Notes: generated from the letters alone by a model not told the origin. A stretch of 64,000 nt of DNA from Candidatus Aldehydirespirator sp. (GCA_965221215.1 OZ244872.1:1867601-1931600); one strand, 5' to 3'; positions 1 through 17,945 are shown, numbered from the stretch's first letter. Numbers and translations are program-made.

Positions 1-2827
1 TCGACCAGCCAGCCCTGTCAAGGACCTGGCTCGCGATGGCGAGGCCCAGGCCGCTGCCACCCGGCTTGGTGGTGAAGCCGAAGTCGAAGACTCGCTCAGC
101 TAGATCCTCGGCGATTCCCGGCCCGGTGTCCCGGTAGATGAGCGCGTCCCCGCGTTTGCTCAACTCGATGAGGCTCTCAGAAGCGTCCGGTCCGGTGCTT
201 TGGATCCAGTACAGGCTGTTGTCGACGAGGTTGATGAACACCGGATAGAACGTCGATGCGTAGCCGGTGATCTTGGCGGCTTCGAACTCGCGGTTTGCGC
301 GGATCTCGGTGTGTGTGGCACGAAGGCGCGCGCGGAAGAGCTCGTTAAGAAAGCGGGCGATGTCACTCCCCTTGATCGTCGTCTTGGTGCGTCTCAGTCG
401 CCGCTGCATCGGCGTCAGCAGCGTGAGGTAGCTGTCGAGATGGTCGAAGTCCCGCCGCAGATCCTCGTAGAGCCCGACCAGCTGAGGATTCTTCTTCGCC
501 CAGGATCCAACCCTTCGCACATCGCTTCGTATGTTGGAGACTGTCGCTCGAAACTCGTGGTCAACCACCGCCAGAGCCAGCCCCAGCTGCACGTATTCGA
601 GTTGGTCGTCGGCCTGGGCTCGAAGTTCGACGATCTCAGCGTCGGCGGCGGCCGCTAGCTCCGTCGGGGCCGGGGCACCGCTGGTGAACACCACATCGCT
701 CGCTCGAAGGAGGTTGGCGACTCGTGACAGCGCCCTGCGGGAGTCGGCGGCCAGCGAGTCCAGGTCCTGCTCGAACTGAGCCTGCTCGCGGATCCAGCCT
801 GTGCTCGCCGAACCGCTCGGACGGGCTATGCCTGCGAGGCGCTTGTCGAAGTCGGCTCGCAGTGTTCGGAGCGCGGCGGTTGCGTTTGCGTTCAACGCCG
901 ACAGCGCTCGGTCGGCATCAGTCTGGGAGGCTGTGATCTCTTCCGTTGCCGCCGCGATCCTCCGCTTGACGAACCGGTCCCGTTCCTGCTCATCGGCCTC
1001 GCGTGCGGCTAGGCGAGCCTCAGTGGCCCCTGCCAGATCGTCGACCAGCTCGAGGGCCGGCCGCACATACGACTCTTCCACATCCGCCGCACCACGTTCG
1101 ACAAACGACAAGTCTTGGCGCATCGGCCCGGACGCTGCGAAGCCCTCCGGCTCGTCGACCTGGAGCGGTGTGACCACCTGGCGCAGGGCTCGTCTGGCCC
1201 GCGCGACCTCTTGCGCCGCTGGCTGAAGGCGATCGGCAGCCGCAAGCTGCGTGCTGAGGTGCTCAACTATCGCTGAAGTCCGTTCCTGGAAATCAGTCTC
1301 GGACAGGTACTCGGCCGCTGATGCCAGCTGTGAACGCAGCCGCCTGCGCCCTGCCGCAGCCTGCCTCTGACGCTCCTTTCGGAGCTTGTCCTCTCGAACT
1401 AGACGTTCGCGGCCCAGCTCGTAAGCGCTGACCTGCGCAGCCTCGCCTCTGAAGTATGTGGCGGCAAGCTGAATGAGGAGGTTGATCAGGAGTTGGCGAA
1501 AGTCGGAGTAGGCACGGCCCGACTTGAAACCCTCCCTGCCCGCCTTCTCCTGTAGGCCAGAGTTCTGCTGGCTCGCAAGGCTCACGGCGCCGAACATCCG
1601 CCGATAGGAGAAGAAGTAGTACGCAGCACCCAAGGAACGGCGCTCCTCGATCTCCAGGTAGTCGAAGTCAGGACGGCCGTAAGGCTGAACCCTGATCCCG
1701 TCCATGTAGACGTACAGGCCACCGAGTCGCCGCAGCTTGGCGTTCATGGAACCAAACGCCTCGGGGTCGAGCCTCGACTCGCTGGCCAAGCCCTGCACCA
1801 CTCCGATTTCGAACGAGAACGGCCCGCAACGCGGCCGCAACGAGTCCGGGCACCTGACATTGAGGTCCGCTGCCTCCTCGTCGAAGATCCTGATCGTGCC
1901 GATGAAGTCGCCGTCCTCGTCGAATTCGCCGTGGATGTGGTGATCTGCTTCCTCAAAGTCCGCCGGTCCGAAGAAGTCGTCGGGCCGCAACAGGCTCTCA
2001 GAGTCGCCGCCGCCCCGGTGATCGACGAAGTCGACGGCGAAGTCGGGGGTAGAGGCCTCGCCGAGCCAGGCGTCGGTGAAGCCGTGCAGCGTTCTCTCGA
2101 ACAGCGATGCTTCCTTAGATCCAGGGGCTCCGATCTCCGCGGCCAGATCCTCCGAAACCGAAGAGACCAGGAACACGGTGCCGGTAGCGCCGAGTGGTCC
2201 CAGGCCGGGGATGGTCCCGTACGGGTCGTCCTGCAACGCGTCCAACGTCGCCTGGATGCCGTCCAGCGCCTGCGTCCACCTCGTCGTTCGACTACGCCGC
2301 CGGAAGCGATTCAGCGCCTCCGCCAGCGGTGCCTTCAGACGGGCCACATCGGCCGCAGTCGGCTGATCGCCGTCGAGTTCCACCAGGCCGACAGGCACTT
2401 CGTCCAAATCGATGCCCGGAAGCTCGAACATCTTCCAGTTGACCAGCGCGGCCACCGCTGGGCAGCCATCCCGCTTGGACACGACCAGGACCTGGCTGCC
2501 GAGAGCACCGATGGCGAACCGGCCGATGCCCTTCTCGCCGAGTTGCACTCTCGGGGTCATCCCTGCGGGTCTTGGCGTCGAGTCGCGCTCCAGCTTCGAC
2601 TCAGTCGCGATCGTGAGCCATGCGCGCTCGAACGTCTCGCGGTCCATCCCGACACCGTCGTCGCTCACCACAAGCACGTTGGGAACTCGGAAGAAGTCGG
2701 CGATCGCGGCGGTGGCGTATGCGTCGTGGGCGTTCTTGAACAGCTCGCTGAGAGCCGTGGGAAGATTGGCGATCTGCTGCCGTCCCAGCATGTCGACCGC
2801 TCGGGCCCGGGCCCGGAAGGCTGTCAT
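1..2827 (-). CDS. Double GHKL ATPase: N-terminal MORC/HSP90-like ATPase module plus C-terminal histidine-kinase-like module (H-box-like + HATPase_c). The 3' end runs off the window.
   Basis: Minus-strand frame is open from ATG 2827..2825 to the window edge. It is absent from the ORF track because no stop lies in the window; the frame was hand-checked at three places. N-terminal motifs: LSELFKNAHDAYA (N-box), VVSDDGVGM (DxGxG), GEKGIGRF. C-terminal motifs: VVDHEFRATVSNIRSD (H-box-like), INLVDNSLYW, YRDTGPGI, KPGGSGLGLAIA. The start overlaps the dcm stop (ATGA). Confidence 0.7.
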   Translation of the reverse strand, partial: MTAFRARARAVDMLGRQQIANLPTALSELFKNAHDAYATAAIADFFRVPNVLVVSDDGVGMDRETFERAWLTIATESKLERDSTPRPAGMTPRVQLGEKGIGRFAIGALGSQVLVVSKRDGCPAVAALVNWKMFELPGIDLDEVPVGLVELDGDQPTAADVARLKAPLAEALNRFRRRSRTTRWTQALDGIQATLDALQDDPYGTIPGLGPLGATGTVFLVSSVSEDLAAEIGAPGSKEASLFERTLHGFTDAWLGEASTPDFAVDFVDHRGGGDSESLLRPDDFFGPADFEEADHHIHGEFDEDGDFIGTIRIFDEEAADLNVRCPDSLRPRCGPFSFEIGVVQGLASESRLDPEAFGSMNAKLRRLGGLYVYMDGIRVQPYGRPDFDYLEIEERRSLGAAYYFFSYRRMFGAVSLASQQNSGLQEKAGREGFKSGRAYSDFRQLLINLLIQLAATYFRGEAAQVSAYELGRERLVREDKLRKERQRQAAAGRRRLRSQLASAAEYLSETDFQERTSAIVEHLSTQLAAADRLQPAAQEVARARRALRQVVTPLQVDEPEGFAASGPMRQDLSFVERGAADVEESYVRPALELVDDLAGATEARLAAREADEQERDRFVKRRIAAATEEITASQTDADRALSALNANATAALRTLRADFDKRLAGIARPSGSASTGWIREQAQFEQDLDSLAADSRRALSRVANLLRASDVVFTSGAPAPTELAAAADAEIVELRAQADDQLEYVQLGLALAVVDHEFRATVSNIRSDVRRVGSWAKKNPQLVGLYEDLRRDFDHLDSYLTLLTPMQRRLRRTKTTIKGSDIARFLNELFRARLRATHTEIRANREFEAAKITGYASTFYPVFINLVDNSLYWIQSTGPDASESLIELSKRGDALIYRDTGPGIAEDLAERVFDFGFTTKPGGSGLGLAIASQVLDRAGWS

Positions 2828-3951
2828 GCGGCTTGCCTTGTGATCTCGGGAGTGCCGTCACCCCTCGGCGCACGCTGGCCTCGGGCGCTGGCGGTCCGCG
2901 TGCCCGCGAACGTCTCGGCGTGCTCCATCAGATGGTGGCCAAAGCGACGTGCGAGCGCGACAGGGACCGCGTTGCCGATCTGTCTCGCCTGTGAGGCCAA
3001 GCTCCCGAAGAACCTGAACTCGGTGGGGAACGTCTGCAGTCGTGCCGCCTCGCGGACACTCAGCGCCCGGTCCTGGTCCGGGTGGCCGAAGCGCCCGTTG
3101 CTGTAGCTGATGCACTTCGTGGTCAAGGTCGGGGCCGCCTTGTCCCAGCTCAACCGGCCGTACACGTCGGTGTGGCCGTCGAAGCCGCCCCGGTGGCAGT
3201 CGGGCCACAGACGCGCGGGCCAGTCCCGGCGGTCGCCTCCCTCGGGCGTCGCACGGATCCGGGAGAGGTTCAAGCTCGACAGCCCCATGGCCCGGTGGCT
3301 GCTCACGTCAGCGTCTTCCTGCCCAGCTGCGATGGGAGGCAGATCGCCGATCCAGTCACGGACCGTAGGGTGGGGGCGCTCGGCGCCGGGACCGTGCGTG
3401 GGGGCTGGCATGTCGATGGGCCCGAGACGGCTCGCCAACAGGACGAACCGCCGCCTTGTCTGGGGCACCCCGTAGTCGGCGCTGGTGATCGTGTCGCAGA
3501 CGACATGGTGCGTCTTGGAGATCTCGTCCACAAACTCCGCTAGAGGGCCCTGCGAGGCGGTAAGGCGCTGCATCCCCGGAACATTCTCCACGAAGATCAA
3601 CTCGGGGTTCAGGGACTCGACGAACCTGAGGAACTCCAGCAGAAGGAATGAGCGGCCGTCGCCGTTGGTCGGCGCGTGGCGGTGGCCGGCGAAGGGCTGG
3701 CAGGGTGCGCACCCCGCGAACAGCCTGATCTGCCTTCCCGACAGCGGCAGCGCAGCTTGAACCTCGTCCGCCTCAAGATCGCGGATGTCCCGTTCGACGA
3801 CGGCAGTCTTCGGAAAGTTCAGCCGGAACGTCGCCGCCGCGTCCGGCTCCCAGTCGATGGCCAGTTCGGGCGCGATACCGGCATGGGCGAAGCCCAGCGA
3901 CGTCCCGCCGCAGCCCGAGAAGAAGTCCGCCAGGACGACATCGGCCCTCAT
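2824..3951 (-). CDS. DNA (cytosine-5)-methyltransferase (Dcm family)
   Basis: 375-aa ORF with the canonical C5-MTase motifs: FFSGCGGTSLGF (I), GCAPCQPFAG (IV, PCQ), FVENVPGM (VI), QTFP, GNAVPV (X). Confidence 0.9.
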   Translation of the reverse strand: MRADVVLADFFSGCGGTSLGFAHAGIAPELAIDWEPDAAATFRLNFPKTAVVERDIRDLEADEVQAALPLSGRQIRLFAGCAPCQPFAGHRHAPTNGDGRSFLLLEFLRFVESLNPELIFVENVPGMQRLTASQGPLAEFVDEISKTHHVVCDTITSADYGVPQTRRRFVLLASRLGPIDMPAPTHGPGAERPHPTVRDWIGDLPPIAAGQEDADVSSHRAMGLSSLNLSRIRATPEGGDRRDWPARLWPDCHRGGFDGHTDVYGRLSWDKAAPTLTTKCISYSNGRFGHPDQDRALSVREAARLQTFPTEFRFFGSLASQARQIGNAVPVALARRFGHHLMEHAETFAGTRTASARGQRAPRGDGTPEITRQAA

Positions 3952-4446
3952 CGGCCCTCATCGGCTCCGCTCGGCAACCCTGCACGCTTGGTGCTGCTCA
4001 TCTTGGTCAATCTAGTGGAGGGCTGCGACAGGTCACCGGCAAGCCGCCCGGCGCTTCCGAGGCTCGCAGTCAGTGAGACCTGGGTACGGACTGGTTTGCA
4101 CTCGGCCCACGACCGAATGTGCCGAGCGATGGCTGGAGGCCGTCGCCATCGTAGACACTACTGACAGGTTGTTGTCCTCATGATGCTCTGATATATCTAG
4201 CTCCATGCTGAGTCACAGCAGGTCTGAGCGCGACGGCAGGACTGCAGTTGGTGCCGATGCCGACGGCGACCTTCTCGACGACTTCTCGGAGTGGGACGAC
4301 TACATCCCCGATGGCATCCACATCTCCGATGCCGAGAGGCAGAGGCTCCATAGGGAGCACGAGAAATACGTTGCTGAACTGATTGAGGAAGTCGGCGAGC
4401 CGACGCCCGAGGAGATGGCGCAGGCGGAGGCCTGGTGGGGCCCGAT

Positions 4447-5889
4447 GGTGGCGTCTCATCGCCGGTGTAATAGCAGCAGGGGCGTAGGTTCCTTCGAGAA
4501 CCTCAACTCAAGAAGGAGACCTACGCCCGTGCCTGCACGAGTATCGCCCACAGAAGCTGTCCGCGCCGAGATCGACGAGTTGTTCGGCTCGGGCCGCGAC
4601 ATCGCCGAGGTGCTCGAGGAGGTGATGCGCCTGTCGGCGCGGCTCGTGTTGCAGCAGGTCCTCGAGGACGAGGTCACCTCCTGGCTGGGCCGGGGCTGGA
4701 ACTCCCGCGCCGGCGGCGGGCGGGCCGGGCAGCGCAACGGCTACGGCGAGGTGACGGTCAAGACCACCGCGGGGCCCCTGGCGCTGAAGCGCCCGAAGCT
4801 GCGCAACACCACCGAGGCGTTCGCGTCGCAGTTGCTGGGCAAGGGCGTGGTGCGCAGCGAGCCGTTGGAGGCGCTGGTGATCTCGGCGTGGGTGCGGGGC
4901 CTGTCAGACCGCGACATCGAGGCCCTGTTGGCGGAGGCGCTGGGACCGGAGGCCGCCTTGTCGAGGTCCACCGCGTCGCGGATCTGCGCGCGGCTGCGCG
5001 ACGAGTTCGACACGTTCCGCAGCTCAGACCTCTCCGATATCGAGCTGGATTACCTGTTCGTTGACGGCAGCCACTTCAAGATGCACGGCGGGTCGCGCGC
5101 TGAGCCGGTGCTGGTCGCCTACGGCATCACCACCCTCGGGCGGCCGGTGCTGCTGGCCGTGGAGCCCGGCGGCGACGAGTCCTATGACGCCTGGGCCGGG
5201 TTCCTCGACGACCTCGCCGAACGGGGGCTGCGGTCCCCGCTGCTGGTCGTCTCAGACGGCGCGGCAGGCCTGATCGGCGCCGTCGAGCAGAAGATGCCGC
5301 AGTCGCTGCGCCAGCGGTGCCTCATCCACCGCGCCCGCAATGTCTTGGCCAAGGTCCCCGCCGGTCGCCGCGACGAACTCAAGGCCGCGTTCTGGGCGAT
5401 CTTCGACCTCGACGACGACATCGAGCCCGGCCAGGAAGCGGTGAGCGCAGCACAAGCCGGCATCGACGGCTTCGCCCGCCGCTACCAGCGCGAGTTCCCC
5501 GCCGCCGTGCGCTGCCTGCTCGCAGACCGCCAAGCGCTCACCGCGCACCTGCGGCTCCCCGCCGCACACTGGCGCAGGATCCGCCACACCAACCTGATCG
5601 AGCGCACCTTCGGCGAGACCCGCCGACGAGTCAAAGTCATCGGCCGGCTCCCCGGCGAAGCGTCCTGCCTCACACTGGTCTGGGCCGTGCTCGACCGGGC
5701 CTCAAACGGCTGGCGAGGCCTCACCTACACACCCGCCATCGCCCGAGCCCTCACCGAGCTGCGCCACCAACTCCACCAACCCGCCCACACCAACACCGAC
5801 CAGCCCGACCACACCGTCACACGCGCCGCCTAACATGACCACCGGAACCTGCGCCCCAACCGCTATTACACCCAATCTGGGACGCCACC
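4447..5889 (+). mobile_element. IS256-family insertion sequence, copy 1 (1443 bp)
   Basis: Imperfect 28-bp terminal inverted repeats, 22/28 matching: GGTGGCGTCTCATCGCCGGTGTAATAGC (4447..4474) versus the reverse complement of 5862..5889. Flanking direct repeat GGGCCCGAT (4438..4446 and 5890..5898). Differs from copy 2 at only two positions seen (5660, 5731). Confidence 0.9.
4529..5833 (+). CDS. IS256-family (Mutator-type) transposase
   Basis: GTG start 7 nt after AAGGAGA. Typical IS256 transposase sequence: VLEDEVTSWLGR.., YLFVDGSHFKM, LVVSDGAAGL, QRCLIHRARNVL, TNLIERTFGETRRRVKVIGRLPGE. Confidence 0.85.
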   Translation: MPARVSPTEAVRAEIDELFGSGRDIAEVLEEVMRLSARLVLQQVLEDEVTSWLGRGWNSRAGGGRAGQRNGYGEVTVKTTAGPLALKRPKLRNTTEAFASQLLGKGVVRSEPLEALVISAWVRGLSDRDIEALLAEALGPEAALSRSTASRICARLRDEFDTFRSSDLSDIELDYLFVDGSHFKMHGGSRAEPVLVAYGITTLGRPVLLAVEPGGDESYDAWAGFLDDLAERGLRSPLLVVSDGAAGLIGAVEQKMPQSLRQRCLIHRARNVLAKVPAGRRDELKAAFWAIFDLDDDIEPGQEAVSAAQAGIDGFARRYQREFPAAVRCLLADRQALTAHLRLPAAHWRRIRHTNLIERTFGETRRRVKVIGRLPGEASCLTLVWAVLDRASNGWRGLTYTPAIARALTELRHQLHQPAHTNTDQPDHTVTRAA

Positions 5890-5928: not shown

Positions 5929-6315
5929 GTGAGCGTCCTAGTCCTCGACTCGGGTGCAGTCACCAGCCTGGCACGCCGAGACCCTCGACGCGCGGCGAGC
6001 ATTCGCCATTCCGGCGATGGCAGCCCGCAACTCACAGTTGTTCCCGCAGTCGTTCTGGTCGAGTGTCTTTCGGGGCGTCAGCGCACCGACGCGGTGGTCA
6101 ATCGCTTCTTGAAGAAGTGCAAGGTCTTGGACGCTCCCGATGAGAAGCTGGCTCGGCGGGCTGGTGCCCTGCGAGCGCAGGCCGGTCGGGGCTCAGCCGT
6201 TGACGCGGTGGTAGTAGCGCTGGCAGAGCCGGGCGGAGCGGTTCTCACCCACGACATCGAGGATCTGCAAGCGCTGGCCTCCCACGCCCGTGAGGTGACC
6301 GTCTTCGCCGCCTAG
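5929..6315 (+). CDS. PIN-domain toxin (VapC-like)
   Basis: 128 aa with the acidic residues in PIN order: VLVLDSGA, VVLVECL, SAVDAVVVALA, LTHDIEDL. GTG start overlaps the stop of the upstream IS-split gene. Confidence 0.75.
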   Translation: MSVLVLDSGAVTSLARRDPRRAASIRHSGDGSPQLTVVPAVVLVECLSGRQRTDAVVNRFLKKCKVLDAPDEKLARRAGALRAQAGRGSAVDAVVVALAEPGGAVLTHDIEDLQALASHAREVTVFAA

Positions 6316-6554
6316 CCGGTCCGGTCGTCACGATCCGCGAGAGGCTCGCTCTCCAGGCCGAGCGCAGCCATGAAGGCGGCGGCTTCCTCGTCGGAGATCG
6401 TGTCGTCCTGAAGCTCCTCAACAGACTCGACAACGCCCACGCCCTGCGCTTGGGCGAGTTCTTCGAGCGACCGCATGGACCAGAAGTCCTCGCTATCGGA
6501 TCCACCCGCCAATGCCTGGCCGGGCTGGGGCGGCGGCTGTCCGGGCCCGGTCAC
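6312..6554 (-). CDS. Small acidic protein (80 aa), antitoxin-like composition, co-transcribed with the DUF1156 methylase
   Basis: ATGA overlap with the stop of the 932-aa gene. The segment SLEELAQAQGVGVVESVEELQDDTISDEEAAAF recalls short actinobacterial antitoxins (from memory, unverified). Its stop overlaps the PIN stop on the other strand (CTAG at 6312..6315). Confidence 0.5.
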   Translation of the reverse strand: MTGPGQPPPQPGQALAGGSDSEDFWSMRSLEELAQAQGVGVVESVEELQDDTISDEEAAAFMAALGLESEPLADRDDRTG

Positions 6555-9349
6555 AACAGGGCCTGCTGGGACGGGCCGGCAGCCGCGGCTGCGCCGGTGC
6601 GCAGGTTGGGCCAGGCGGTGATGAGGCCGTTGTAGGCGCCGGCCTCGGCGGCCCAGCCGCGGTCGTTGGCCTTCTGGTACAGCAGGTAGGCAAGCTGACG
6701 AGCCCGATCACCGTTGCCGCCGAGGATGTGCAGGAGTTCGGCCGCCTCAGACTCCGAGCGCTCCAGCCCGGCGGCCAGGTGTTGGGTGGCCTCCCACACG
6801 GTGAACCGGTCGTCATGCACCGGCGACCAGTCGGGATCGAGTTCGCTGCGCTCGTACAGGCGGAACTTGCCGGCCCGGGCCTCGCCGATACCAGATTCCT
6901 CGATGCCGGCCAGGGAGGTGTTCTTGGCTCGGGCCACGCTGTCAGCGTCACCTGAGGGACCGGAGTCGTAGCCATGCTCGGCGAACCAAGTGAGTGCGAA
7001 GCGTGTGTCGGCATCGAGTTCGGCTTCCTCGCCGTCGAGCACTTCACCAAGCACATCGTTGATGATGGCCAGCGCGGCCGACACCGGCATCGACGACCCA
7101 TCGGCCTCCACCACCCGGGCATACCGGGAGAACACCTTGATGCCCGGCCCGATGGTGGACTGTGCCATATCCACCGGAGCAATATTGCCCGACTGCAACA
7201 TCCGCACCGCCTCAGGAAGCTCCTGCCGCAACGCGGCAATGAACTCACCACGCGTAGCTAGAACCGCCGAATCAGGCCGTGGTCGGCAGGCAAGCACGAT
7301 CGAGGACGCGAGAGCGTTGGTGCCTCTGGCGAGAATTCGGCCAGGTGACTCGGTACGCATCGGCCACGTAGCGCAGACCTGCAATCCTGCACCGAAGACA
7401 GCCTGCAAGAACGTGTCCCAACCCGTCGTACGAACCTCTCCATCCTTGGATTCGGTCGCCTTGTACGCGTAGTAGATCGTCGCGGGGACATCTGGTGGCT
7501 GATTCTGCGCAACTTGAGCCATGAACTCCGCCATGCCGGACTCGAAGTGTCGCTCGGCTTCCTCCTTTGAGCCTGCCCGGTGGGTATTCGCAATGAGTTC
7601 TTCAGCTTTGGGAGTCAGCAGTGTCGAGCACTCGTCAGGCCACACGTCCGACAGGTTCCTTCGCAGCCAGACGTAGAAGAAATCCGACAAATCGGCGTAG
7701 GAAATGTTGTCATAGTACGGAGGATCAGTCGCGACGACGCCGCCCGCGGATTCTCGAACGCGCGCACGAGCATCCCGCTGGACAGCTACACCTTGGCGAT
7801 CTTGAGAGCCAGCACATGATGGCAGTTCTGCAATGACCCGCTGAACCTTAGAAAGACAGAGTTCCCAGCTGCCTCCTCGTCCTGAGAAGGGACTTGCTTC
7901 CGCGAAGTCCCATGTCATAGGAATCGCCTGGCGGGCGAACACTTCACGGAAGGCCCCTCGATCATTCATCCATGTGACGACGTTCGACCAGAGATTCGTG
8001 CACTTGTCGATGGTGAACGCCAAGTACGTCACGATTGCATCTGCGTACGCATCGGCACCGCGGCCGCCCTCAAACAATCTCATTCCGTTCGTTGCCAAGC
8101 CAGCAGCCTGCGCATGGGATCGTGCCGACATCTTAACCTGGTGAAGAAGACTTGAGAATTCAGTTAGCGCAGTTAGCTGCCGGGGCGTAAACAGCTTCCA
8201 CCATTCGTCTAGTCCGTAGATGGTAATCCAGATATTGCGAGGATCAAGCGCCACGTCGCTGGTAGGAATCCGGGAAGGCAGACCAGCATCTGCGGCCTCG
8301 ATGTCTTCGTTTGAGGCAGCGCGATACACCTTGCCGTTCGAACTCTCTAGAATGACTGCCATCAACTGATGACGCATGCGCCCAGCAAGGCTCTCCGATT
8401 TGATGTAGCTCCCGGGAATGGCGGCACCCGTCGCAATGCAGGTGCCCTTGCCCCTGTCCACCGTTCTACCGTGGGACGGCTCACCGCCTTCCCGAATCTC
8501 ATAGCTAATCGTCATAGCGTCGCGGTCGATGATCGGCGCGATCCAGACCTTGGGCTTGCCGGGCCGTTTGGCGAGCGTCCACGACGCCACTAGCGGCACA
8601 TGGCCCGACCAGCTCGGGTCCGGCGACTCCACGGTGCGGGCCCAGATCCAGGCGATAGGCGTGAGTTGCTCTCCGTTGGGGCCGGTGGCATCGGGGTACA
8701 GGTGCCCGATGCGCTTGTAGGCCTCATTGCGCATCCACTGTCCATACGCCTCGATGTCGGCAGCGAGTCCCTGGGCCCGCTCCCAGGTGGTGAGGGTCTT
8801 GTCGATGTCGGGATGGACCGGTGGCAGCCCAGCGAAGCGGGGCGGGATCTCAATCGTTGCCTTGTTGATCAGCACCGCCACCGGGTTCAGGTCCCCGGCG
8901 AGCGCAGTGAGTCCGAGTCGCTGCGCCTCCAGCGGTATGGCCCCTCCCCCGGCGAAAGGATCCAAGATCGGCGGAGGCCCATCGGGGAAGCACCGGTCGA
9001 TTTCGGCCCGGGCCTCAGCCAGCACGTCAGCGTTGTTCGAGTTCTCCCACTTGACCAGCCGCTCCAGGATCCCAAACAGCCGCTGCCGCTCAGCATCCAT
9101 CTTCTGCTCACGCTCTGCCTTCTGCTCTTCAGTCTCGTCATCGGGGGTCACGAACTCGTCATAGCCCGAGGGATCATCCACCAGCGATGCCCAGATCACC
9201 GCCCGAGCCGCTGCCAGCGGCCGCCGAGCCCACCACAGATGCAGCGTCGACGGATGCCCATGCCGAATCGACTTCTCCCGCGCCGCCTCAGCATTGATCG
9301 CCGCCAACGGCAAAGCCACCTCGATCAACTTCGGCTTGTAGTCTTTCAC
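6551..9349 (-). CDS. DUF1156-type DNA methyltransferase, probably N6-adenine
   Basis: 932 aa. N-terminus MKDYKPKLIEVALPLAAINAEAAREKSIRHGHPSTLHLWWARRP is characteristic of DUF1156. AdoMet motif LDPFAGGGAIPLEAQRLG, then catalytic VATDPPYYDNISYADLSDFFYVWL. Confidence 0.8.
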   Translation of the reverse strand: MKDYKPKLIEVALPLAAINAEAAREKSIRHGHPSTLHLWWARRPLAAARAVIWASLVDDPSGYDEFVTPDDETEEQKAEREQKMDAERQRLFGILERLVKWENSNNADVLAEARAEIDRCFPDGPPPILDPFAGGGAIPLEAQRLGLTALAGDLNPVAVLINKATIEIPPRFAGLPPVHPDIDKTLTTWERAQGLAADIEAYGQWMRNEAYKRIGHLYPDATGPNGEQLTPIAWIWARTVESPDPSWSGHVPLVASWTLAKRPGKPKVWIAPIIDRDAMTISYEIREGGEPSHGRTVDRGKGTCIATGAAIPGSYIKSESLAGRMRHQLMAVILESSNGKVYRAASNEDIEAADAGLPSRIPTSDVALDPRNIWITIYGLDEWWKLFTPRQLTALTEFSSLLHQVKMSARSHAQAAGLATNGMRLFEGGRGADAYADAIVTYLAFTIDKCTNLWSNVVTWMNDRGAFREVFARQAIPMTWDFAEASPFSGRGGSWELCLSKVQRVIAELPSCAGSQDRQGVAVQRDARARVRESAGGVVATDPPYYDNISYADLSDFFYVWLRRNLSDVWPDECSTLLTPKAEELIANTHRAGSKEEAERHFESGMAEFMAQVAQNQPPDVPATIYYAYKATESKDGEVRTTGWDTFLQAVFGAGLQVCATWPMRTESPGRILARGTNALASSIVLACRPRPDSAVLATRGEFIAALRQELPEAVRMLQSGNIAPVDMAQSTIGPGIKVFSRYARVVEADGSSMPVSAALAIINDVLGEVLDGEEAELDADTRFALTWFAEHGYDSGPSGDADSVARAKNTSLAGIEESGIGEARAGKFRLYERSELDPDWSPVHDDRFTVWEATQHLAAGLERSESEAAELLHILGGNGDRARQLAYLLYQKANDRGWAAEAGAYNGLITAWPNLRTGAAAAAGPSQQALL

Positions 9350-9404: not shown

Positions 9405-10550
9405 ATGGCGAACGCTACTCCCCGGGACGCACGTGCCGGATTCGCGATCTACCGTCAGAGGGATGGAGCCATCGAGCTTGATGCCATCAATTCTCGACTA
9501 GAAGAATCCGGTTACGGTCGAATCGCGCAACGCACCCTCACTCACTATCGCAATCTTGTGAAGGCCGGATTCAATCGATACATTTCAATCAACCGCTTCG
9601 ATGTCGCTCGAGCCTCCCGACCCTATGAGAACATGTCCACATTGAGCCGGTATCGATACCACGCTGTCGGCCAAGAGATCATTGTAATCTTCTCGAAGAA
9701 CAGCGAGATACTTGAAGTCCAAGGCCAAATGATCGAGTCGGGCGATGTGGGTGCAGTTCTGACGTTCTCCAACGAGGAGTCTCTTCAAAAACTACGACAG
9801 TATACGCCCCGCCCTGGTGTGTACCTCACTCTACACAAGGTCAATTCACCCACTAGTATCAGCGCAACAGTCATCGAATGCGACCTTGAGAGCAGTCCAG
9901 TTCTTCTTGAAGTCGAGTACACAACGCTTGTCTCCCTAGCTGAGATCGAAGATTCGGTTCCATCGCACAGCGTCTTGGCAGAGTTCACGCTCATTTCTGG
10001 TACCGATGGCCTGGAGGCTATGGATGTCATCGGAAGACGCCTGCACAACTTCTTTGATCTTCTTGAAGGCATGCGCGCGCTGTTGAACGAAGCTGGCCGA
10101 TACTCGGGTGACGATATGTATGCCGCTCCTCCGGTGGTACACGAAATCCGAATTTCTTCACCGGCTGTTTTGCTTCTTCAAGTGTCACATGATCTCATTT
10201 CACTTGTGCCTTGGCCCTTGTTGATCGCGCTGTTTCCGGCGTGGCGCAAGACTTGGTACAAGGGAACTCGAGAGAAACGAGAAGCGAAGTTGGCAGATGT
10301 GGAGCGACAAAAGGCCGAGTTGGAACTGAAAGCAAGGAAGATGGAGACGAGCCTGCACTCTCAAATCGTTGAAAACATGCGTGCCCAAATGCCCGGAGCT
10401 AGTATTCCTGATTCTGTAATAGAACAGATCTGGCTTTCGGCTATTCTTCCATCCTATCGTGCGCTCTCGCGCTCCGACGTTCAAAAAATCATTGTCGAAC
10501 AAGATGACGAAACTGAAGTCTCCAAAGATGGCTCTGACGATGATGGTTGA
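9405..10550 (+). CDS. Hypothetical protein (381 aa) with one predicted TM segment followed by a charged coiled-coil; lower-GC gene
   Basis: ATG is 8 nt after GGAGG. Hydrophobic LISLVPWPLLIALFPAW, then KGTREKREAKLADVERQKAELELKARKME and an acidic tail. No recognisable catalytic motif. GC is visibly lower than the flanks. Confidence 0.6.
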   Translation: MANATPRDARAGFAIYRQRDGAIELDAINSRLEESGYGRIAQRTLTHYRNLVKAGFNRYISINRFDVARASRPYENMSTLSRYRYHAVGQEIIVIFSKNSEILEVQGQMIESGDVGAVLTFSNEESLQKLRQYTPRPGVYLTLHKVNSPTSISATVIECDLESSPVLLEVEYTTLVSLAEIEDSVPSHSVLAEFTLISGTDGLEAMDVIGRRLHNFFDLLEGMRALLNEAGRYSGDDMYAAPPVVHEIRISSPAVLLLQVSHDLISLVPWPLLIALFPAWRKTWYKGTREKREAKLADVERQKAELELKARKMETSLHSQIVENMRAQMPGASIPDSVIEQIWLSAILPSYRALSRSDVQKIIVEQDDETEVSKDGSDDDG

Positions 10551-10929: not shown

Positions 10930-12462
10930 TCACGAGTCGCCTCGGGCGAAGCCAGCGAGCCTCGGGAGGTCGTCGGATGAGAGCATCCGGATGACGTCTC
11001 GCACCGGCTTGTCAGGTCCGATGAGCGTCTGGAGCGCACGGTGCCCGGCGCTGGTCGGCGCGGGCCGATCGGTGGTCAGAAGCACAATCGGAGTGTCCGG
11101 CTCGACCGAATGCAGCACGGCCGCCTTGCCGAGTGCTTTCCAGAGAGTGTCCGTGCGGCGCAACCCGGGACGTTGCGTGACACTGAATGCCCCTGACACA
11201 TCGAAGAACCACTTGCGACCAGACCGGTCTCGAGCCTCAAAGTTGACCTCGACGCCGCAGGGCTTCTTCACCTTCTCTCCAACAACCTCGAAGCCGCACT
11301 GGAGCAGCACCGCTTTGGCCATCACTTGGGCCTTGCGTCCCTCCCGCCCGGCCCTCGCCTGAAAGTCGCCCGGCACGCTGGAATCAGGACGGGTAGCGAC
11401 ATGCGGGGAACTGCCGTTCGACGAGGCCAACGACTCGACGAGGTCCAGGAAGAACTGGCGATCGCTCCTGCGTCTGGTCGACGGCGACGCGGTCACCGAC
11501 CAGCCCACCCCATCGGATCGCTCCTCAAGCCTTTGCCGCTCATCGGCGATACGCCGTTCGGCCAACTCGATGTAGGAGGCGTCGGTGTCGAAGCCGGCGT
11601 AGCGACGGCCGGTGCGGACGGCGGCGACTGCCGTCGTGCCAGCCCCGACGAAAGGGTCGAGGATCAGGTCGCCGCGGTAGGTGTAGAGCTCGATCAGCCG
11701 CTCGGGCAACTCCACGGGAAACGGCGCAGGATGCTCGACGCGCGTAGCCGAAGCCGGGGGTATTTCCCAGACGTCTGTCGTGGCCTCCATGAACTCATCG
11801 ACATAGGCGGAGCCATCCGAGGGCCAGCCTTTCTCGGCGCGCGCGGCGGGTGGCAGCGCCCGGTCGAAGCGGCCCTTGGACGCGATCACCACCCGCTCCG
11901 TGAGGTCTCGCAGCACAGGATTGCCGGGCTGTTGGAAGCTGCCCCACGCGCAGCTGCCAGTGGCGCCCTTGGCCTTCTGCCAGACCACCTCGCCTCGCAG
12001 CAGCAGTCGCAGGCGGTCCTGCAGTATCGCGATCACATCTGCGGACAGGGAGCGATATGGGCGCCGCCCCAGGTTGGCGATGTTCACTGCAATGCGCCCG
12101 CCAGGCTCAAGCTTCCGCACGCACTCCCTGAAGACGTCCTCCAGCATCTTGAGATAGTCGACGTAGCTGGCAGGAACGTGGCCGTGCCCCACGGCCTGCT
12201 CGTACTCCTTGCCCGCGTAATAGGGCGGCGAGGTCACGACGAGAGCAACCGAATCGTCCGCTACATCGCCACACGCGTCCATGTCACGGGCATCGCCCAC
12301 CCAGAGACAGTCAGCGCTCGCATGGGGCTTGATCTCATCATCGTCACAGATCTCTGGAACCGGGAACCGCTCGTAGAACGCCGAAGCGTCGTGAGCCTCC
12401 CGGCGGCTCACGCCGAAGCTCGACGTAGACGTGCCGCGCCTACGGCCGTTCGATGCACTCAC
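10930..12462 (-). CDS. Beta-class N4-cytosine/N6-adenine DNA methyltransferase (SPPY) with a ~190-aa C-terminal extension of unknown function
   Basis: LVVTSPPYYAGKEYE (motif IV) precedes LILDPFVGAGTTAVAAVRTGRRYAGFDTD (motif I), which is the beta order. The C-terminal part (..GVEVNFEARDRSGRKWFFDVSGAFSV..RTDTLWKALGK..) matches no domain I recognise. Confidence 0.8.
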   Translation of the reverse strand: MSASNGRRRGTSTSSFGVSRREAHDASAFYERFPVPEICDDDEIKPHASADCLWVGDARDMDACGDVADDSVALVVTSPPYYAGKEYEQAVGHGHVPASYVDYLKMLEDVFRECVRKLEPGGRIAVNIANLGRRPYRSLSADVIAILQDRLRLLLRGEVVWQKAKGATGSCAWGSFQQPGNPVLRDLTERVVIASKGRFDRALPPAARAEKGWPSDGSAYVDEFMEATTDVWEIPPASATRVEHPAPFPVELPERLIELYTYRGDLILDPFVGAGTTAVAAVRTGRRYAGFDTDASYIELAERRIADERQRLEERSDGVGWSVTASPSTRRRSDRQFFLDLVESLASSNGSSPHVATRPDSSVPGDFQARAGREGRKAQVMAKAVLLQCGFEVVGEKVKKPCGVEVNFEARDRSGRKWFFDVSGAFSVTQRPGLRRTDTLWKALGKAAVLHSVEPDTPIVLLTTDRPAPTSAGHRALQTLIGPDKPVRDVIRMLSSDDLPRLAGFARGDS

Positions 12463-15393
12463 GGCCCGTCAGGCCTGCGGATGTTGCCCGCGTGGCTGTG
12501 CAGCATGATCGGGAAGCCGTTGAGAGTCACGGCAAGAAGCTACAGGTCCTATGCGACACCGACTCTGGAGCCGAGGATCCTCGCGGTAGGGAGGCTCGGC
12601 TCGCACATCAGGACTTTACCGCGTGTGAGGCTCAAATGCCAGTATTGTAATTTCGCTCGACGTAGCTCGGACCCACAGACCAGACACAGATGGACCGTGT
12701 CGAACAGTGCGTTTGATGCTACCTGACAGCCGAGACTGAGCCACGCAGATCAGGTCGGTGGGGTGGCGTAGGTGAGGAGGTCGGCGACGTTGAGGGGGAC
12801 GCTGGTCTGGGCCGGGTGCAGGGTCACGTTCTTGAACGGCTCGACCAGGTAGTGGACCTCGGGTTCGGCGTCGGGGTCTTCGGGGACGGAGACCACGGCC
12901 AGTCGCCAGCGTTCGCGGTTGTTTTGGGACTGGCCTACCTGGCGGCGGCTGACGCTGATCTGTTCGGTTTGGGGTAGGTGGCCTTTGACCTCGATGAAGT
13001 AGCACGCTCCGGTGGCGGGGTCGATGGACAGTACGTCGTAGCCGGGGTTGCCGTGGGCCTGTTCCTCGGGGACCCGGCCCAGTTTCTGTTCGGCCTTCAT
13101 CACTGCGGCTACGGCTCGGCGGTCGGTTTCGGCCTTCTTGGCGGGGTCGACGGAGATGACGGTTCGGCCGGCCAACTCGTCGAGCAGCCCTTGGGGCACT
13201 ACGACCGCGGCTGCAACGATGGTGGGCGGGCTGTTGTGGAGGTCGTCCTCTTGGGTCAGCTCCAGGCGTCGTCGGGCGAGGCGGGCCTGCAGTTCGTCGG
13301 CTCTGGCCCGGGCGCGGCCTGAGTTAATACGGGGTTTCTTGCCTGCTATCTCCTGGGCCTTGATCTCCTCGGTGCGCCGGTCCCAGTAGCGGATCTCGGA
13401 CTCCAGGCGCTCCCGCACTGCATTCCAGACCTTGGAGATCCGGGCGTGGGTGATGGCGGCGACCTCGTCGAAGTGCGGGCCGGCCAGGTGCTCGATGGCC
13501 CAGGACCGGGCCGTGTCCTCGGCGGTTCGGTCTGCCCATTCGAGGTCTAGCTGCCCGTCCAGGAGTGTCTGCTGGTCCTGGGTCAGGGGCGCGTAGTTGA
13601 GGTAGGGCTCATCGCCGGGGTCTCCGACATTGCCGGCGCGGTCGATCTCGACGTAGTGGAACCGGCGTGACACCACTTGGCGGGTGCCGTGGACCTCGCG
13701 TCCGTCGGTGATGGTGTGGTCCAGGTAGACGAGCAGACGTGGATCGGTTGACGGATCGCTGTCGTCTACCAGCACCGCGCCCTGCCGCAGGGTCGAGCCG
13801 AAGTCGGCCATGGCCTTGTTCACCACCGCCGCCAGCAGCGGCGTGCCAGGGGAGATCAGATCGGCCCGCATCGATGCGCCCGGTGGGCTATCGCTGGCGC
13901 GGTTCGGCTGGATGTGGGCCTTGTCGAAGGTCACCCGCTCGTAGCGGTCATGCACCGGCCCGAGGTCGGCCTCGGCGTGGGCCCGGACCGCGGCCGGCAC
14001 CCGGGTGATCTCGAAACGGCCGTGCTCGCGCCCTGCGATCCGTCCGCTGTAGAGGCGCAGGGCCTCGGTGAAGAACGACTCCACGAACCAGGGCTGCAAC
14101 CGGCGGGCCCGAGCGATCTCCATGTCGCGGCGGATCTTGTCGTTGGCGGCAGGATCGGCCAGCCCGGCCACCAGTGCCCGCTCGTCGAGCACACCCTGCA
14201 TCTGGCGCCCGATGTCATCGTCGATCACCTCGTCCATCCACTCGACATGGGCAGGATCCTCATCAGAGGCGATGGCCCGCATCAGCAGGTCGCGCAGCGA
14301 AATGTTGATCTGGGCGTCGCCCAGCACGTCGTACACCTGGTCGCCGTAGACGCCGCGCTGCTCCTCGATCTTGGCGAACAGCCTCTCGAACACCTTGCCC
14401 TCGCGGGTCTCGAACGCGACCAGGTTCCACAGATGGCACGGCCGATGCTGGCCGATGCGGTGCACCCGCCCGAAGCGCTGCTCGATGCGGTTGGGGTTCC
14501 AGGGCAGGTCGTAGTTGACCACCATGTTGGCTGCCTGAAGATTGACGCCCTCGCCGGCCGCGTCGGTGGCCACCAGCACCCGCGCCGTGGGATCGACCCG
14601 GAACCGGTCCTGGATGCCGCGGCGGTCGTGGCGCTTGATCCCGCCGTGGATCCTGACCACCGCCTCCGGCCGGCCCAGCTCGGACTCGATCCGCTCGGCG
14701 ACATAGTCGAGCGTGTCCTTGTGCTCGGAGAACACGATCAGCTTGCGGGCCGAATCTGAGCCGGCGCTCAAATCCAGACCAGAGTCGGACGAGTCCGAGA
14801 GAGCGCCCGTTGCGAAGCGGTCAGAGCGCAACAGGCCCCGCAGCTGGAGCCACTTGGTGTCGACGCCGCTGCGGCGCACGCCGTCGGCCAGCTTCACCAA
14901 CTCCTTGAGCTCCTCGACCTCGGCCTCCAGCTCTTCGGCGGTGCCGGCCGCGGTGGCCGCGTCGATCACGACGTCCTCCAGGTCCTCGCGCTCGGCATCG
15001 TCGTAGTCGTCGAAGTCAAAGTCCTCCAGATCAGCGATCTTCACGCCCTTCGGCAGATCGATCACTGGCACCGGACTGCCGGAAGCAGCCAGACGGCGCA
15101 ACTCCGCGGCCTGGTCGTTCAAGCGGTCCCGGCGGCGGCGCAGGGAGTGGTAGATGGCCGCGGGGGACGATGCCAGGCGGCGCTGGAGACCGGCCAGCGC
15201 GAAGCCGACAATGATCCCGCGGCTCTTGTCGCCCTCCTCGCTCATCCGCGCCGCCCGGTTCATGCCGTTGCGCACGTAGTCGGTGACTTCCTTGTACAAC
15301 TCGGCCTCGGACTCCGAGAGCTCGAAGTTGAGGCTGTGAGCGTGGCGCTGAGGGAACAGGCGCTTGCCCTCAAAGGTCCGCAGGTTCTCCTTG

Positions 15394-16836
15394 GGTGGCG
15401 TCTCATCGCCGGTGTAATAGCAGCAGGGGCGTAGGTTCCTTCGAGAACCTCAACTCAAGAAGGAGACCTACGCCCGTGCCTGCACGAGTATCGCCCACAG
15501 AAGCTGTCCGCGCCGAGATCGACGAGTTGTTCGGCTCGGGCCGCGACATCGCCGAGGTGCTCGAGGAGGTGATGCGCCTGTCGGCGCGGCTCGTGTTGCA
15601 GCAGGTCCTCGAGGACGAGGTCACCTCCTGGCTGGGCCGGGGCTGGAACTCCCGCGCCGGCGGCGGGCGGGCCGGGCAGCGCAACGGCTACGGCGAGGTG
15701 ACGGTCAAGACCACCGCGGGGCCCCTGGCGCTGAAGCGCCCGAAGCTGCGCAACACCACCGAGGCGTTCGCGTCGCAGTTGCTGGGCAAGGGCGTGGTGC
15801 GCAGCGAGCCGTTGGAGGCGCTGGTGATCTCGGCGTGGGTGCGGGGCCTGTCAGACCGCGACATCGAGGCCCTGTTGGCGGAGGCGCTGGGACCGGAGGC
15901 CGCCTTGTCGAGGTCCACCGCGTCGCGGATCTGCGCGCGGCTGCGCGACGAGTTCGACACGTTCCGCAGCTCAGACCTCTCCGATATCGAGCTGGATTAC
16001 CTGTTCGTTGACGGCAGCCACTTCAAGATGCACGGCGGGTCGCGCGCTGAGCCGGTGCTGGTCGCCTACGGCATCACCACCCTCGGGCGGCCGGTGCTGC
16101 TGGCCGTGGAGCCCGGCGGCGACGAGTCCTATGACGCCTGGGCCGGGTTCCTCGACGACCTCGCCGAACGGGGGCTGCGGTCCCCGCTGCTGGTCGTCTC
16201 AGACGGCGCGGCAGGCCTGATCGGCGCCGTCGAGCAGAAGATGCCGCAGTCGCTGCGCCAGCGGTGCCTCATCCACCGCGCCCGCAATGTCTTGGCCAAG
16301 GTCCCCGCCGGTCGCCGCGACGAACTCAAGGCCGCGTTCTGGGCGATCTTCGACCTCGACGACGACATCGAGCCCGGCCAGGAAGCGGTGAGCGCAGCAC
16401 AAGCCGGCATCGACGGCTTCGCCCGCCGCTACCAGCGCGAGTTCCCCGCCGCCGTGCGCTGCCTGCTCGCAGACCGCCAAGCGCTCACCGCGCACCTGCG
16501 GCTCCCCGCCGCACACTGGCGCAGGATCCGCCACACCAACCTGATCGAGCGCACCTTCGGCGAGACCCGCCGACGAGTCAAAGTCATCGGCCGGCTCCCC
16601 GGCGAAACGTCCTGCCTCACACTGGTCTGGGCCGTGCTCGACCGGGCCTCAAACGGCTGGCGAGGCCTCACCTACACCCCCGCCATCGCCCGAGCCCTCA
16701 CCGAGCTGCGCCACCAACTCCACCAACCCGCCCACACCAACACCGACCAGCCCGACCACACCGTCACACGCGCCGCCTAACATGACCACCGGAACCTGCG
16801 CCCCAACCGCTATTACACCCAATCTGGGACGCCACC
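15394..16836 (+). mobile_element. IS256-family insertion sequence, copy 2 (1443 bp)
   Basis: Same ends and inverted repeats as copy 1, same orientation. Flanked by the 8-bp direct repeat TCTCCTTG (15386..15393 and 16837..16844). Confidence 0.9.
15476..16780 (+). CDS. IS256-family (Mutator-type) transposase
   Basis: Same frame and start context as copy 1. One amino-acid difference seen (GRLPGETS versus GEAS). Confidence 0.85.
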   Translation: MPARVSPTEAVRAEIDELFGSGRDIAEVLEEVMRLSARLVLQQVLEDEVTSWLGRGWNSRAGGGRAGQRNGYGEVTVKTTAGPLALKRPKLRNTTEAFASQLLGKGVVRSEPLEALVISAWVRGLSDRDIEALLAEALGPEAALSRSTASRICARLRDEFDTFRSSDLSDIELDYLFVDGSHFKMHGGSRAEPVLVAYGITTLGRPVLLAVEPGGDESYDAWAGFLDDLAERGLRSPLLVVSDGAAGLIGAVEQKMPQSLRQRCLIHRARNVLAKVPAGRRDELKAAFWAIFDLDDDIEPGQEAVSAAQAGIDGFARRYQREFPAAVRCLLADRQALTAHLRLPAAHWRRIRHTNLIERTFGETRRRVKVIGRLPGETSCLTLVWAVLDRASNGWRGLTYTPAIARALTELRHQLHQPAHTNTDQPDHTVTRAA

Positions 16837-17945
16837 TCTCCTTGACCAGCCGTCGCATAACGTCGCTGACATCGGGCACGGCCGGGCCGTCACCGTCGGT
16901 GTCTGCCCCCGATCCGCCGCCACCGCCGTCTCGCAGCCGGCCCGCGAAGCGCTCGGGATCGATCAGTGTCATGAAGGCCAGGAAGTCCTCGTTCTTGCCG
17001 TTGTGGGGCGTGGCCGTCAGCAGCAGCAGATGGCGGGTGCACTCCCGCAGCGTCTCCCCCAGCACGAACCGCTTGGTGCGTCGCAACTCGTCGCCGTAGC
17101 GGTGAGCCGACATCTTGTGGGCCTCGTCCACGATCACCAGATCCCAGTCCGAAGCCTGGACCTTGGCCATCAGCTCCTCAGAGCGCGACATCTGGTCCAC
17201 CCGGGCGATGAGCAGGTTCTTCTCAGTGAACGGGTTGCCGGTTCGAGAGGCTTCCACGGCTGCCCGCGACATCAGGTCGAAGGACAGGCCGAACTTCTCC
17301 CACAACTCGTCCTGCCACTGCTCCACCAAGCTCCCAGGCGCCACGATCAAACAGCGGGCCACATCGCCCCGCAGCACCAACTCACGGATCAACAACCCCG
17401 ACATGATCGTCTTGCCCGCACCCGGATCGTCGGCCAGCAGGAACCTCAACGGCCTCTGGGCAAGCAGCCGGTTGTAGACAGCGTCGATCTGATGCGGGTA
17501 GGGATCAATGTTGGACGTGTCCACCGCTGCGAACGGATCAGCGAGATGGGCCTGTCGCATGCGGCGGGCCTCCGACGCCAGACGGAACATCGCGCCGTCG
17601 GCATCGAAACTCCACCGCCGCTCGGACACCTCCGCCAGCCCGGCCAGGTCGTCGACCAAGATGATCCGGTCACCGAGACCCCCGTCAGCCGTCTTGTACG
17701 TGAGCGTGGCCGAGTTGGCGCCGTGCATCTCCACAGCAACCACCGTCACATCCGCGTCAGCCACCACCCCTGACAGCCGCATCCCCGCAGCAAGATCACC
17801 GAAGCCGAGCGTCACACCGCCGATCCCCCGCACTGAGTCCACCCATGCACCGCTGCCTGCTCCCGGCCGCCGAAACGGCGATTAGATCCGCCAGCAGGCT
17901 ACGCATCCCGTGTGACGCCGACGAGCGGGAACAGGCCCCGGACTG

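Follow-up and report, generated by a model that had tools for sequence, protein, structure and literature searches.

A C5 methylase gene coupled to a paraMORC-type ATPase-histidine kinase fusion in Candidatus Aldehydirespirator sp.: part of a three-gene cassette with a possible role in defence

We analysed a 64,000-nucleotide stretch of DNA from Candidatus Aldehydirespirator sp. (GCA_965221215.1 OZ244872.1:1867601-1931600; this whole stretch is called the window), at whose left edge a gene for a C5 cytosine DNA methyltransferase (dcm) is followed by a long gene whose product fuses a paraMORC-type GHKL ATPase to a histidine-kinase transmitter. As judged from sequence comparison, the pair is two genes of a three-gene Dcm/paraMORC-kinase/Response_reg_2 cassette known from comparative genomics published in 2021, and the partner missing from the window is, on the same basis, a receiver-like protein and not a nuclease. 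Our preferred reading, to which we give a probability of roughly 0.6, is that the cassette is a methylation-gated defence system of two-component type, mobile and self-contained. The obligatory linkage to a methylase, the mobility of the cassette and its location in defence islands together suggest a device that tells self from non-self in the manner of restriction-modification (R-M) and does so by signal transduction.

An earlier note on this DNA had regarded the fusion and its coupling to Dcm as an uncharacterised novelty. That claim fails because both have already been published and catalogued in Pfam: the two signature domains, HEF_HK (PF19191) and Response_reg_2 (PF19192), were defined by Bellieny-Rabelo, Pretorius & Moleleki (Genome Biol Evol 2021, PMC8011034). 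In this purely computational description, the "group 1" architecture HATPase_c_3 + HEF_HK + HATPase_c accounts for 174 of 222 sequences, a Response_reg_2 gene is linked to the HEF_HK gene in 91.6% of 644 regions, a C5 methylase gene is usually found upstream and a Vsr gene often downstream, and an excess of R-M genes is seen up to ten genes away from the HEF_HK/Response_reg_2 pair. The same authors proposed that the family derives from the paraMORC ATPases that Iyer, Abhiman and Aravind described in 2008 (PMC8011034; PMC2292703). The window pair has the PF19191 H-box, the group 1 architecture and the upstream C5 methylase of these elements, and nothing essential sets it apart from them: the protein is soluble, a Response_reg_2 gene lies downstream in close relatives, and Vsr occurs in a minority. 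The window copy comes from an Acidimicrobiia-like genome and lies between hmaB and, probably, hmaC of an Hma system. In our searches the family comprised 675 clusters at 50% identity (E<=1e-30), most of 950-1000 amino acids (aa) and matching end to end.

Architecture of the large protein and its coupling to dcm

The two genes and the parts of the large protein are the following.

2824..3951, minus: C5 cytosine DNA methyltransferase (Dcm), 375 aa (Pfam DNA_methylase, E=1.2e-47; NCBIfam dcm TIGR00675, E=7.1e-37, above cutoff)
2824..2827, minus: ATGA overlap of dcm stop and large-gene start (TGA 2826..2824, ATG 2827..2825, read directly)
2..2827, minus: paraMORC-type GHKL ATPase and histidine-kinase transmitter fusion, 942 aa in the window (open frame, three Pfam domains)
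2138..2827, minus: N-terminal GHKL (Bergerat-fold) ATPase domain, aa 1-230 (Pfam HATPase_c_3 at aa 24-124, E=5.8e-12, 46.2 bits, cutoff 25)
1517..2137, minus: beta-rich middle (transducer, S5-like) domain, aa 231-437 (Foldseek and conservation)
668..1516, minus: long alpha-helices, about 280 aa (aa 438-720; AlphaFold2 (AF2) secondary structure; block conservation 0.22-0.40)
389..589, minus: HEF_HK (DHp/H-box) domain, aa 747-813 (Pfam PF19191, E=1.7e-23, 83.3 bits, cutoff 24.1)
2..382, minus: catalytic ATP-binding (CA, HATPase_c) domain, aa 816-942, cut by the window edge (Pfam HATPase_c at aa 860-939, E=1.9e-12, 48 bits, cutoff 26.4)

The ATGA overlap, which the earlier note had pointed out, is confirmed by direct reading of both codons and represents translational coupling of the two genes; a 4-nucleotide (nt) overlap is also found in most Acidimicrobiia relatives (dcm end at 10004, kinase-like start at 10001). 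The length given there for the large gene, more than 940 aa, also stands: 942 codons without a stop run to window position 2. Since full-length homologues have 947-966 aa, with about 962 typical, some 20 C-terminal residues should lie beyond the window edge. Dcm carries the motifs PCQPF (aa 83), ENV (aa 122), QTRRR (aa 164), RE..RLQTFP (aa 300) and GNAVP (aa 326). A perfect 10-bp tandem duplication, GATGAGGGCC GATGAGGGCC GATG, lies across the dcm start codon (3939..3962, minus). It gives rise to three ATGs at a spacing of 10 nt, and only the middle one (3951) fits the reading frame. Relatives carry this repeat in imperfect form.

Conservation was assessed over 118 full-length representatives at 30-40% identity; some of the counts below are out of 119 sequences. 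The GHKL motifs of the large protein are ELFKNAHDA (aa 28-36), SDDGVGM (aa 55-61) and GEKGIGRF (aa 97-104), and all motifs quoted in the earlier note are present at the spacing it reported. Within them E28, N32, D35, D56, G58, G60, G97, K99, G100 and G102 are kept in all ungapped representatives (n=118). A variable helical insert at about aa 150-210 of the GHKL domain is indicated by AF2 secondary structure and conservation. The transducer domain contains a motif, E-K428-x-G-R431-E432-G-F, a candidate gamma-phosphate sensor whose K428, R431 and E432 are shared by 119/119 sequences. With intact GHKL ATP motifs and an S5-like transducer, the large protein has the ATPase and transducer features of the paraMORC/MORC GHKL ATPases. 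The helices that follow (aa 438-459, 467-510, 513-530, 534-550, 567-605, 610-665 and 678-716 in the AF2 model), presumably a coiled-coil arm for signal transmission, form the least conserved part of the protein, the 150-210 insert also being variable.

The C-terminal part has the DHp histidine and the N, G1 and G2 boxes by which classical sensor kinases are recognised. The H-box, VVDHEFRATVSNIRS, spans aa 754-768, and its phospho-acceptor candidate His757 (encoded at 557..559, inside H757-E758-F759) is invariant in 119/119 family sequences. The CA domain has an N box INLVDNSLYW with N870, a G1 box DTGPGI (aa 900-905) and a G2 box GGSGLGLAI (aa 923-931); N870, G924, G926 and G928 are invariant across the family representatives. 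The invariance of these residues and of those in the GHKL motifs indicates that both ATPase sites and the phospho-acceptor histidine are under selection. According to a 2026 preprint, PF19191 has no conserved T/N at position His+4, a residue associated with phosphatase activity; in the window protein this position is Ala761.

A structural model agrees with this layout. AF2 was run on a homologue 94% identical to the window protein (P0001; mean predicted local distance difference test score, pLDDT, 75.3, a moderate confidence), and the model consists of a GHKL domain (about aa 1-230), a beta-rich domain (about 264-430), long helices (438-716), a two-helix DHp (721-811) and an alpha/beta CA domain (816-958). 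In Foldseek the N-terminal half aligns over 460-530 columns with Hsp90/GRP94, the SMCHD1 ATPase module, MORC2 and MORC3 (E about 1e-10, probability 1.0), and the C-terminal part over about 235 columns with the histidine kinases (HKs) HK853, YycG, ZraS and CusS. Together with the Pfam match to HATPase_c_3, the former result bears out the N-terminal module of MORC/HSP90 type that the earlier note had recognised; together with the invariant His757 and the N, G1 and G2 boxes, the latter bears out its complete C-terminal transmitter. A PDB profile search of the C-terminal part likewise returned HK catalytic cores (3a0r; ZraS, 9jfj; E down to 4.4e-12). Thus Pfam, the PDB profile search and Foldseek all find the C-terminal half kinase-like, which had been open to refutation. 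Hsp90, SMCHD1 and MORC score alike in Foldseek, so that the match does not distinguish MORC from Hsp90 ancestry. With eukaryotic MORC2/MORC3, SMCHD1 and Hsp90 the first 460-530 residues share the fold and the ATP-binding motifs at 10-15% sequence identity; the large protein differs in having no CW, chromo-like or hinge domains and in the fusion to a bacterial transmitter.

A nuclease hidden in the supposed linker of about 450 aa between the two modules, which the earlier note had suggested looking for, is rejected on the basis of AF2 and Foldseek: the segment is accounted for as a transducer domain of Hsp90/MORC/SMCHD1 type and about 280 aa of long helices. No nuclease fold for the large protein appears among the 50 Foldseek matches listed. 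The paraMORC3-containing Shedu system VcSduA was also considered and has another architecture, GHKL with a DUF4263 nuclease, which is not that of the large protein's family. As the same note had observed, neither a nuclease nor Vsr is encoded within 1..3951; Vsr was not found anywhere in the window by tblastn with a Vsr query sequence, a query that did find Vsr in three related loci.

The three-gene cassette and its receiver-like member

To assess the linkage of the pair to other genes, open reading frames (ORFs) were called in the fetched loci and searched with profiles built here. The census covers 32 loci, about 22 of them distinct since some are redundant, drawn from Acidimicrobiia, from Pantoea and Pseudoalteromonas megaplasmids, from one distant relative at 40% identity and from 15 IMG/VR contigs. 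A C5 methylase adjoins the kinase-like gene in 32/32 loci; the synteny with C5 methylases on which the earlier note had made its proposal depend is therefore general in this set. A receiver-like gene follows the kinase-like gene in 27 of the 29 loci that could be assessed, and the two exceptions (L010, L034) both have a disrupted or truncated kinase-like gene. Two of the 32 loci (L021, L028) have a shuffled gene order with all three genes kept. Ten of the 32 (10/32) also contain Vsr, whose position varies and is sometimes directly downstream of the receiver-like gene. These loci come from different phyla and their flanks share nothing else, which indicates that the unit of inheritance is the trio. 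The three genes also co-diverge (Spearman r of 0.67-0.83 between pairwise identities). A comparison of the target-recognition region of Dcm with segments of the other two proteins, made to locate a reader of specificity through co-variation, singled out no segment (partial correlations -0.15 to 0.32); within Acidimicrobiia this region is as conserved as the methylase core, with no swaps. Two Streptomyces loci (L015, L016) belong to a shorter, paralogous family of 713 aa, with about 36% identity at both ends and the GHKL and kinase ends kept; at neither locus did we detect Dcm or a receiver-like gene next to it.

The nearest relatives (L038, L012, L002, L001; 88-94% protein identity) have a Response_reg_2 gene of 510-528 aa that overlaps the large-gene stop by 4 nt, and genes of this kind occur throughout the close relatives (L001-L009, L011-L014, L038). 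The third gene of the window copy would accordingly be expected just past the left edge. The earlier note had warned that an ordinary restriction endonuclease might be encoded there, making the locus a standard one; no such enzyme follows in any of the nearest relatives, where the place is taken by Response_reg_2 and then by HmaC or unrelated genes. L012 and L002 resemble the window in having hmaB upstream, and in both HmaC (HEPN_Swt1 + DUF499, PADLOC E=1.8e-275) begins 5 nt after the receiver-like gene, so that the trio is placed between hmaB and hmaC. Taken together, the cassette is found in several defence contexts: Hma (the window, L002 and L012), Type I R-M (L020) and, in E. coli, an island integrated at ssrA with an integrase. 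L002 carries, directly upstream of hmaB, a short prokaryotic Argonaute (pAgo) system (SIR2-APAZ + short pAgo, 1518..4825, PADLOC E about 1e-195), which marks the locus as a defence island. The nesting of the trio in Hma could be functional or could reflect a shared island history. Dcm and the large protein were themselves considered as HmaA, HmaB or HmaC; neither matches the Hma models, and the Hma genes are neighbours.

The receiver-like protein was studied in these relatives. Its N-terminal 170 residues conserve an acidic pair (D15-D16), D95, D100 (in LLILD100), T132 and K169-P170, and fold in the model as a receiver domain, with weak Foldseek matches to NtrX, LuxO and isolated receivers. 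A helical region, predicted partly at low confidence, is followed by a beta-rich domain at about residues 370-500 (pLDDT >90) and a C-terminal helix. This orphan domain carries the motif hhC.Q..CD..R ... SR.G.D.SEW, in which G, C...C-D, F and R.G are invariant across phyla. With six C-terminal fragments and three complete proteins as queries, Pfam at E<=10 revealed no nuclease or effector; the PADLOC scan gave no effector, the PDB sequence profile search 0 matches, and Foldseek against PDB and BFVD weak receiver-domain matches alone, with no match for the C-terminal domain. Nor was a DNA-binding output domain recognisable. The orphan domain is the obvious candidate effector. A profile search with it returned short, Pfam-less proteins alone and no new fusion partner; of two such proteins examined, one comes from a receiver-like gene that has been split, as in Hoeflea, and the other is cut by contig ends and adjoins ScoMcrA-like HNH genes. 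In three loci (L040-L042), receiver-like fragments at contig ends lie beside a convergent ScoMcrA-like gene (DNA-SBD_ScoMcrA + HNH_2), the contigs breaking within the cassette; an association of HNH_2 with the family was reported in 2021 (PMC8011034), in line with these loci.

Several copies of the cassette are decayed. The receiver-like gene is truncated in L007 and split in L039 (Hoeflea). L010 has a frameshift in dcm and an interruption of about 1 kb in its kinase-like gene, and in L014 frameshifts affect both the kinase-like and the receiver-like gene. Part of the decay in L007, L010, L014, L034 and L039, some of which are records with OY/OZ-type accessions, may be sequencing error. A remnant of the cassette is present in 573/5426 complete E. 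coli genomes (about 10%), mostly at >=99% identity. This remnant (L036, L037), annotated as "remnant integrative element" in AJ304858, lies beside the integrase at ssrA and has an intact 582-aa receiver-like gene, no dcm, and, beside an IS3 fragment, a kinase-like gene of 572-615 aa from which the N-terminal ATPase is missing. An IMG/VR copy of the cassette (L024) had no megablast match in E. coli genomes. Among four of the decayed loci (L007, L010, L014 and the E. coli remnant) none has kept an intact kinase and receiver after losing Dcm. These patterns, though few, are compatible with the mechanism proposed below.

Proposed mechanism and competing explanations

The observations above suggest how such a system might work. 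Dcm would mark host DNA with 5-methylcytosine (5mC), and the N-terminal Hsp90/MORC-like clamp would act as a sensor, most plausibly of DNA that does not carry the mark. ATP-driven dimerisation of the clamp would then be relayed through the helical arm to the DHp/CA core, leading to autophosphorylation on His757 and transfer of the phosphate to the conserved aspartate (LLILD) of the receiver-like protein. Finally, its orphan C-terminal domain (C..x.CD ... SR.G) would restrict the invader or arrest the cell. Of this scheme, the analysis shows the identities of the domains, the intact catalytic residues at both ATPase sites and at the histidine, the strict linkage of the three genes across phyla and their location in defence islands and mobile elements; the sensed signal, the phosphotransfer, the effector activity and the role in defence are what we infer. 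In its strongest form, the proposal would make the cassette a new class of epigenetic immunity, in which a MORC/SMCHD1-like clamp reads cytosine methylation and drives a His-to-Asp phosphorelay that ends in a new effector fold; we consider this possible, with the odds against it.

A number of points weigh against a defence system of this kind. DNA binding or methylation reading by the N-terminal ATPase is putative, and proteins, too, are bound by Hsp90-like folds. Neither a nuclease nor any other known effector domain was found in the trio, and the orphan domain, for which no match was found, is assumed to be an effector. At G1-box residue 900 (nt 128..130) the aspartate of the window protein is shared by 78 of the 119 sequences, and the other 41, a third of the family representatives, have asparagine. 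The receiver-like gene is not inside the window, and no receiver-like ORF was found elsewhere in its 64 kb. Two loci (L001, L018) lie among housekeeping or transport genes and not in a defence island. PADLOC has no model for the trio, with REase_II the sole family matching the large protein, and in the literature searched we found no experimental test of any member of the family.

The authors of the 2021 study speculated that the proteins form a cytoplasmic two-component system that regulates an R-M system or Dcm and is not itself an immune effector. Transmitter and receiver modules are indeed bona fide in sequence, the published over-representation of R-M genes around the pair would fit such a role, and further methylases or R-M-like systems are near (within the window, the N6_N4 methylase and HmaB; at L020, Type I R-M). 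However, the absence of a recognisable DNA-binding output domain from the receiver-like protein is hard to reconcile with it, no restriction enzyme is consistently near while the three genes alone are conserved between completely different flanks, and an ATPase clamp of 960 aa would be an odd sensor for simple gene regulation. We consider this explanation rather unlikely. Alternatively, the MORC-like clamp itself could be the effector, entrapping, compacting or silencing unmethylated DNA, with the His-Asp relay tuning or resetting it and the receiver serving as modulator or phosphate sink. MORC2, MORC3 and SMCHD1, which the N-terminal half resembles, compact or silence DNA in eukaryotes; the trio has no nuclease; and the E. 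coli remnant has lost exactly Dcm and the N-terminal ATPase, with the rest intact in about 560 genomes. Yet this remnant represents a single clonal event, DNA binding by the clamp is itself putative, and the receiver-like protein's C-terminal domain is well folded (pLDDT >90) and conserved across phyla with invariant Cys, Asp and Arg, which argues for an activity of the receiver-like protein's own. An effector role of the clamp therefore seems to us unlikely.

The remaining two explanations place the pair in better known systems. In a conventional Type II (GHKL-type) R-M pair the large protein would be a restriction endonuclease as in BbrUII/HgiDII, and its gene is in fact translationally coupled to a C5 methylase. 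The NCBIfam model for these enzymes (NF050001) matches aa 10-130 at E=1.7e-14, and this stretch is also picked up by two PADLOC models of REase_II, PDLC03419 (E=1.8e-09) and PDLC03485 (E=0.00071). The NF050001 match is nevertheless to the GHKL domain alone (profile positions 9-127 of 659, 53.3 bits against a cutoff of 550), so that what is shared with these enzymes is an N-terminal GHKL domain and a C5-methylase partner, the likeness ending after about 120 residues. The AF2 model and the Foldseek matches listed moreover show no nuclease fold, all segments being ATPase, transducer, helices, DHp or CA, and we regard a Type II enzyme as very unlikely. The least credence goes to the idea that the large protein is an accessory of methylation-linked repair, a MutL-like partner in very-short-patch (VSP) repair of the T:G mismatches that arise by 5mC deamination. 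MutL stimulates Vsr in E. coli, Vsr adjoins the trio in 10/32 loci, and the large protein has weak profile similarity to PMS2/MutL N-termini. On the other hand, neither the window nor 22/32 loci have Vsr, it accompanies many C5 methylases whatever their partners, and a histidine kinase and receiver have no role in known VSP repair.

Genomic surroundings and related systems

The region upstream of dcm contains the following features.

3952..4039, minus: upstream region common to relatives in other contexts (homology with L011 and L012 begins at 4038/4039)
4447..5889: IS256-family (Mutator-type transposase) insertion sequence (IS) element, 1443 bp, copy 1 (by comparison with L002)
5929..6315, plus: PIN-domain (VapC-like) ORF between the IS element and hmaB (Pfam E=6.6e-07)
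6312..6554, minus: small ORF adjoining the PIN ORF
6551..9349, minus: HmaB (PADLOC E=0)
10930..12462, minus: N6_N4 methylase
12750..15299, minus: HmaA, C-terminal part with NOV_C nuclease-like domain
15394..16836: IS256-family element, copy 2, splitting hmaA (same orientation as copy 1, 99.86% identical)
16649..17842, minus: HmaA, N-terminal part (split by IS copy 2)

The 88 bp at 3952..4039 that relatives have in common are presumably the promoter and leader of the cassette and include a conserved element, CACTAGATT. A scan for consensus promoters and terminators upstream of dcm gave nothing at threshold; GTGACC-16 nt-TAGATT in this region is a weak promoter candidate. IS copy 1 is a clean insertion relative to L002; its terminal inverted repeats are 46 nt long and imperfect, and the target duplication is 9 bp (GGGCCCGAT). 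It lies about 500 bp upstream of dcm, where it splits a small divergent ORF and spares the common 88 bp. A 542-aa ORF at 4205..5833 is a chance in-frame fusion of the start of the disrupted host ORF with the transposase. The two IS copies flank about 9.5 kb with the PIN gene, hmaB, the N6_N4 methylase and hmaA's 3' part, and this pair might behave as a composite transposon or favour deletion. In the window dcm is intact, and the large gene is intact as far as the edge.

Among described systems, the cassette shares with the paraMORC/prokaryotic MORC proteins of 2008 a GHKL ATPase with S5-like transducer, a cytosine methylase operon, occasional Vsr and a sporadic, lateral distribution (PMC2292703). 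Those paraMORCs have SF-II helicase partners or C-terminal nuclease or TIR domains (PMC2292703), whereas the large protein ends in a histidine-kinase transmitter and has a receiver-like protein as its partner. Detocs, a defensive two-component system (Rousset et al. 2023), offers a precedent for the proposed logic: it is reportedly an anti-phage system of a soluble histidine kinase and a receiver-effector, in which a sensor triggers His-to-Asp transfer to the effector. Its sensor is reportedly a different one, and it reportedly has a buffer receiver, a nucleosidase effector and no methylase.

The family joins DNA methylation, a clamp of MORC/Hsp90 type and a phosphorelay, which are usually separate, and it ends in a domain for which no relatives were detected. 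It is large, spread across phyla and located in defence islands, and about 10% of complete E. coli genomes carry remnants of it. Should a function be demonstrated, the family would provide a signalling-based variant of restriction-modification logic and a tractable bacterial model for the coupling of MORC-type ATPases to DNA methylation. Should the reading as epigenetic immunity prove true, the cassette would be the first restriction-like system to work through signal transduction and not through a methylation-sensitive nuclease, and a prokaryotic counterpart, possibly a forerunner, of methylation-linked silencing by MORC and SMCHD1.

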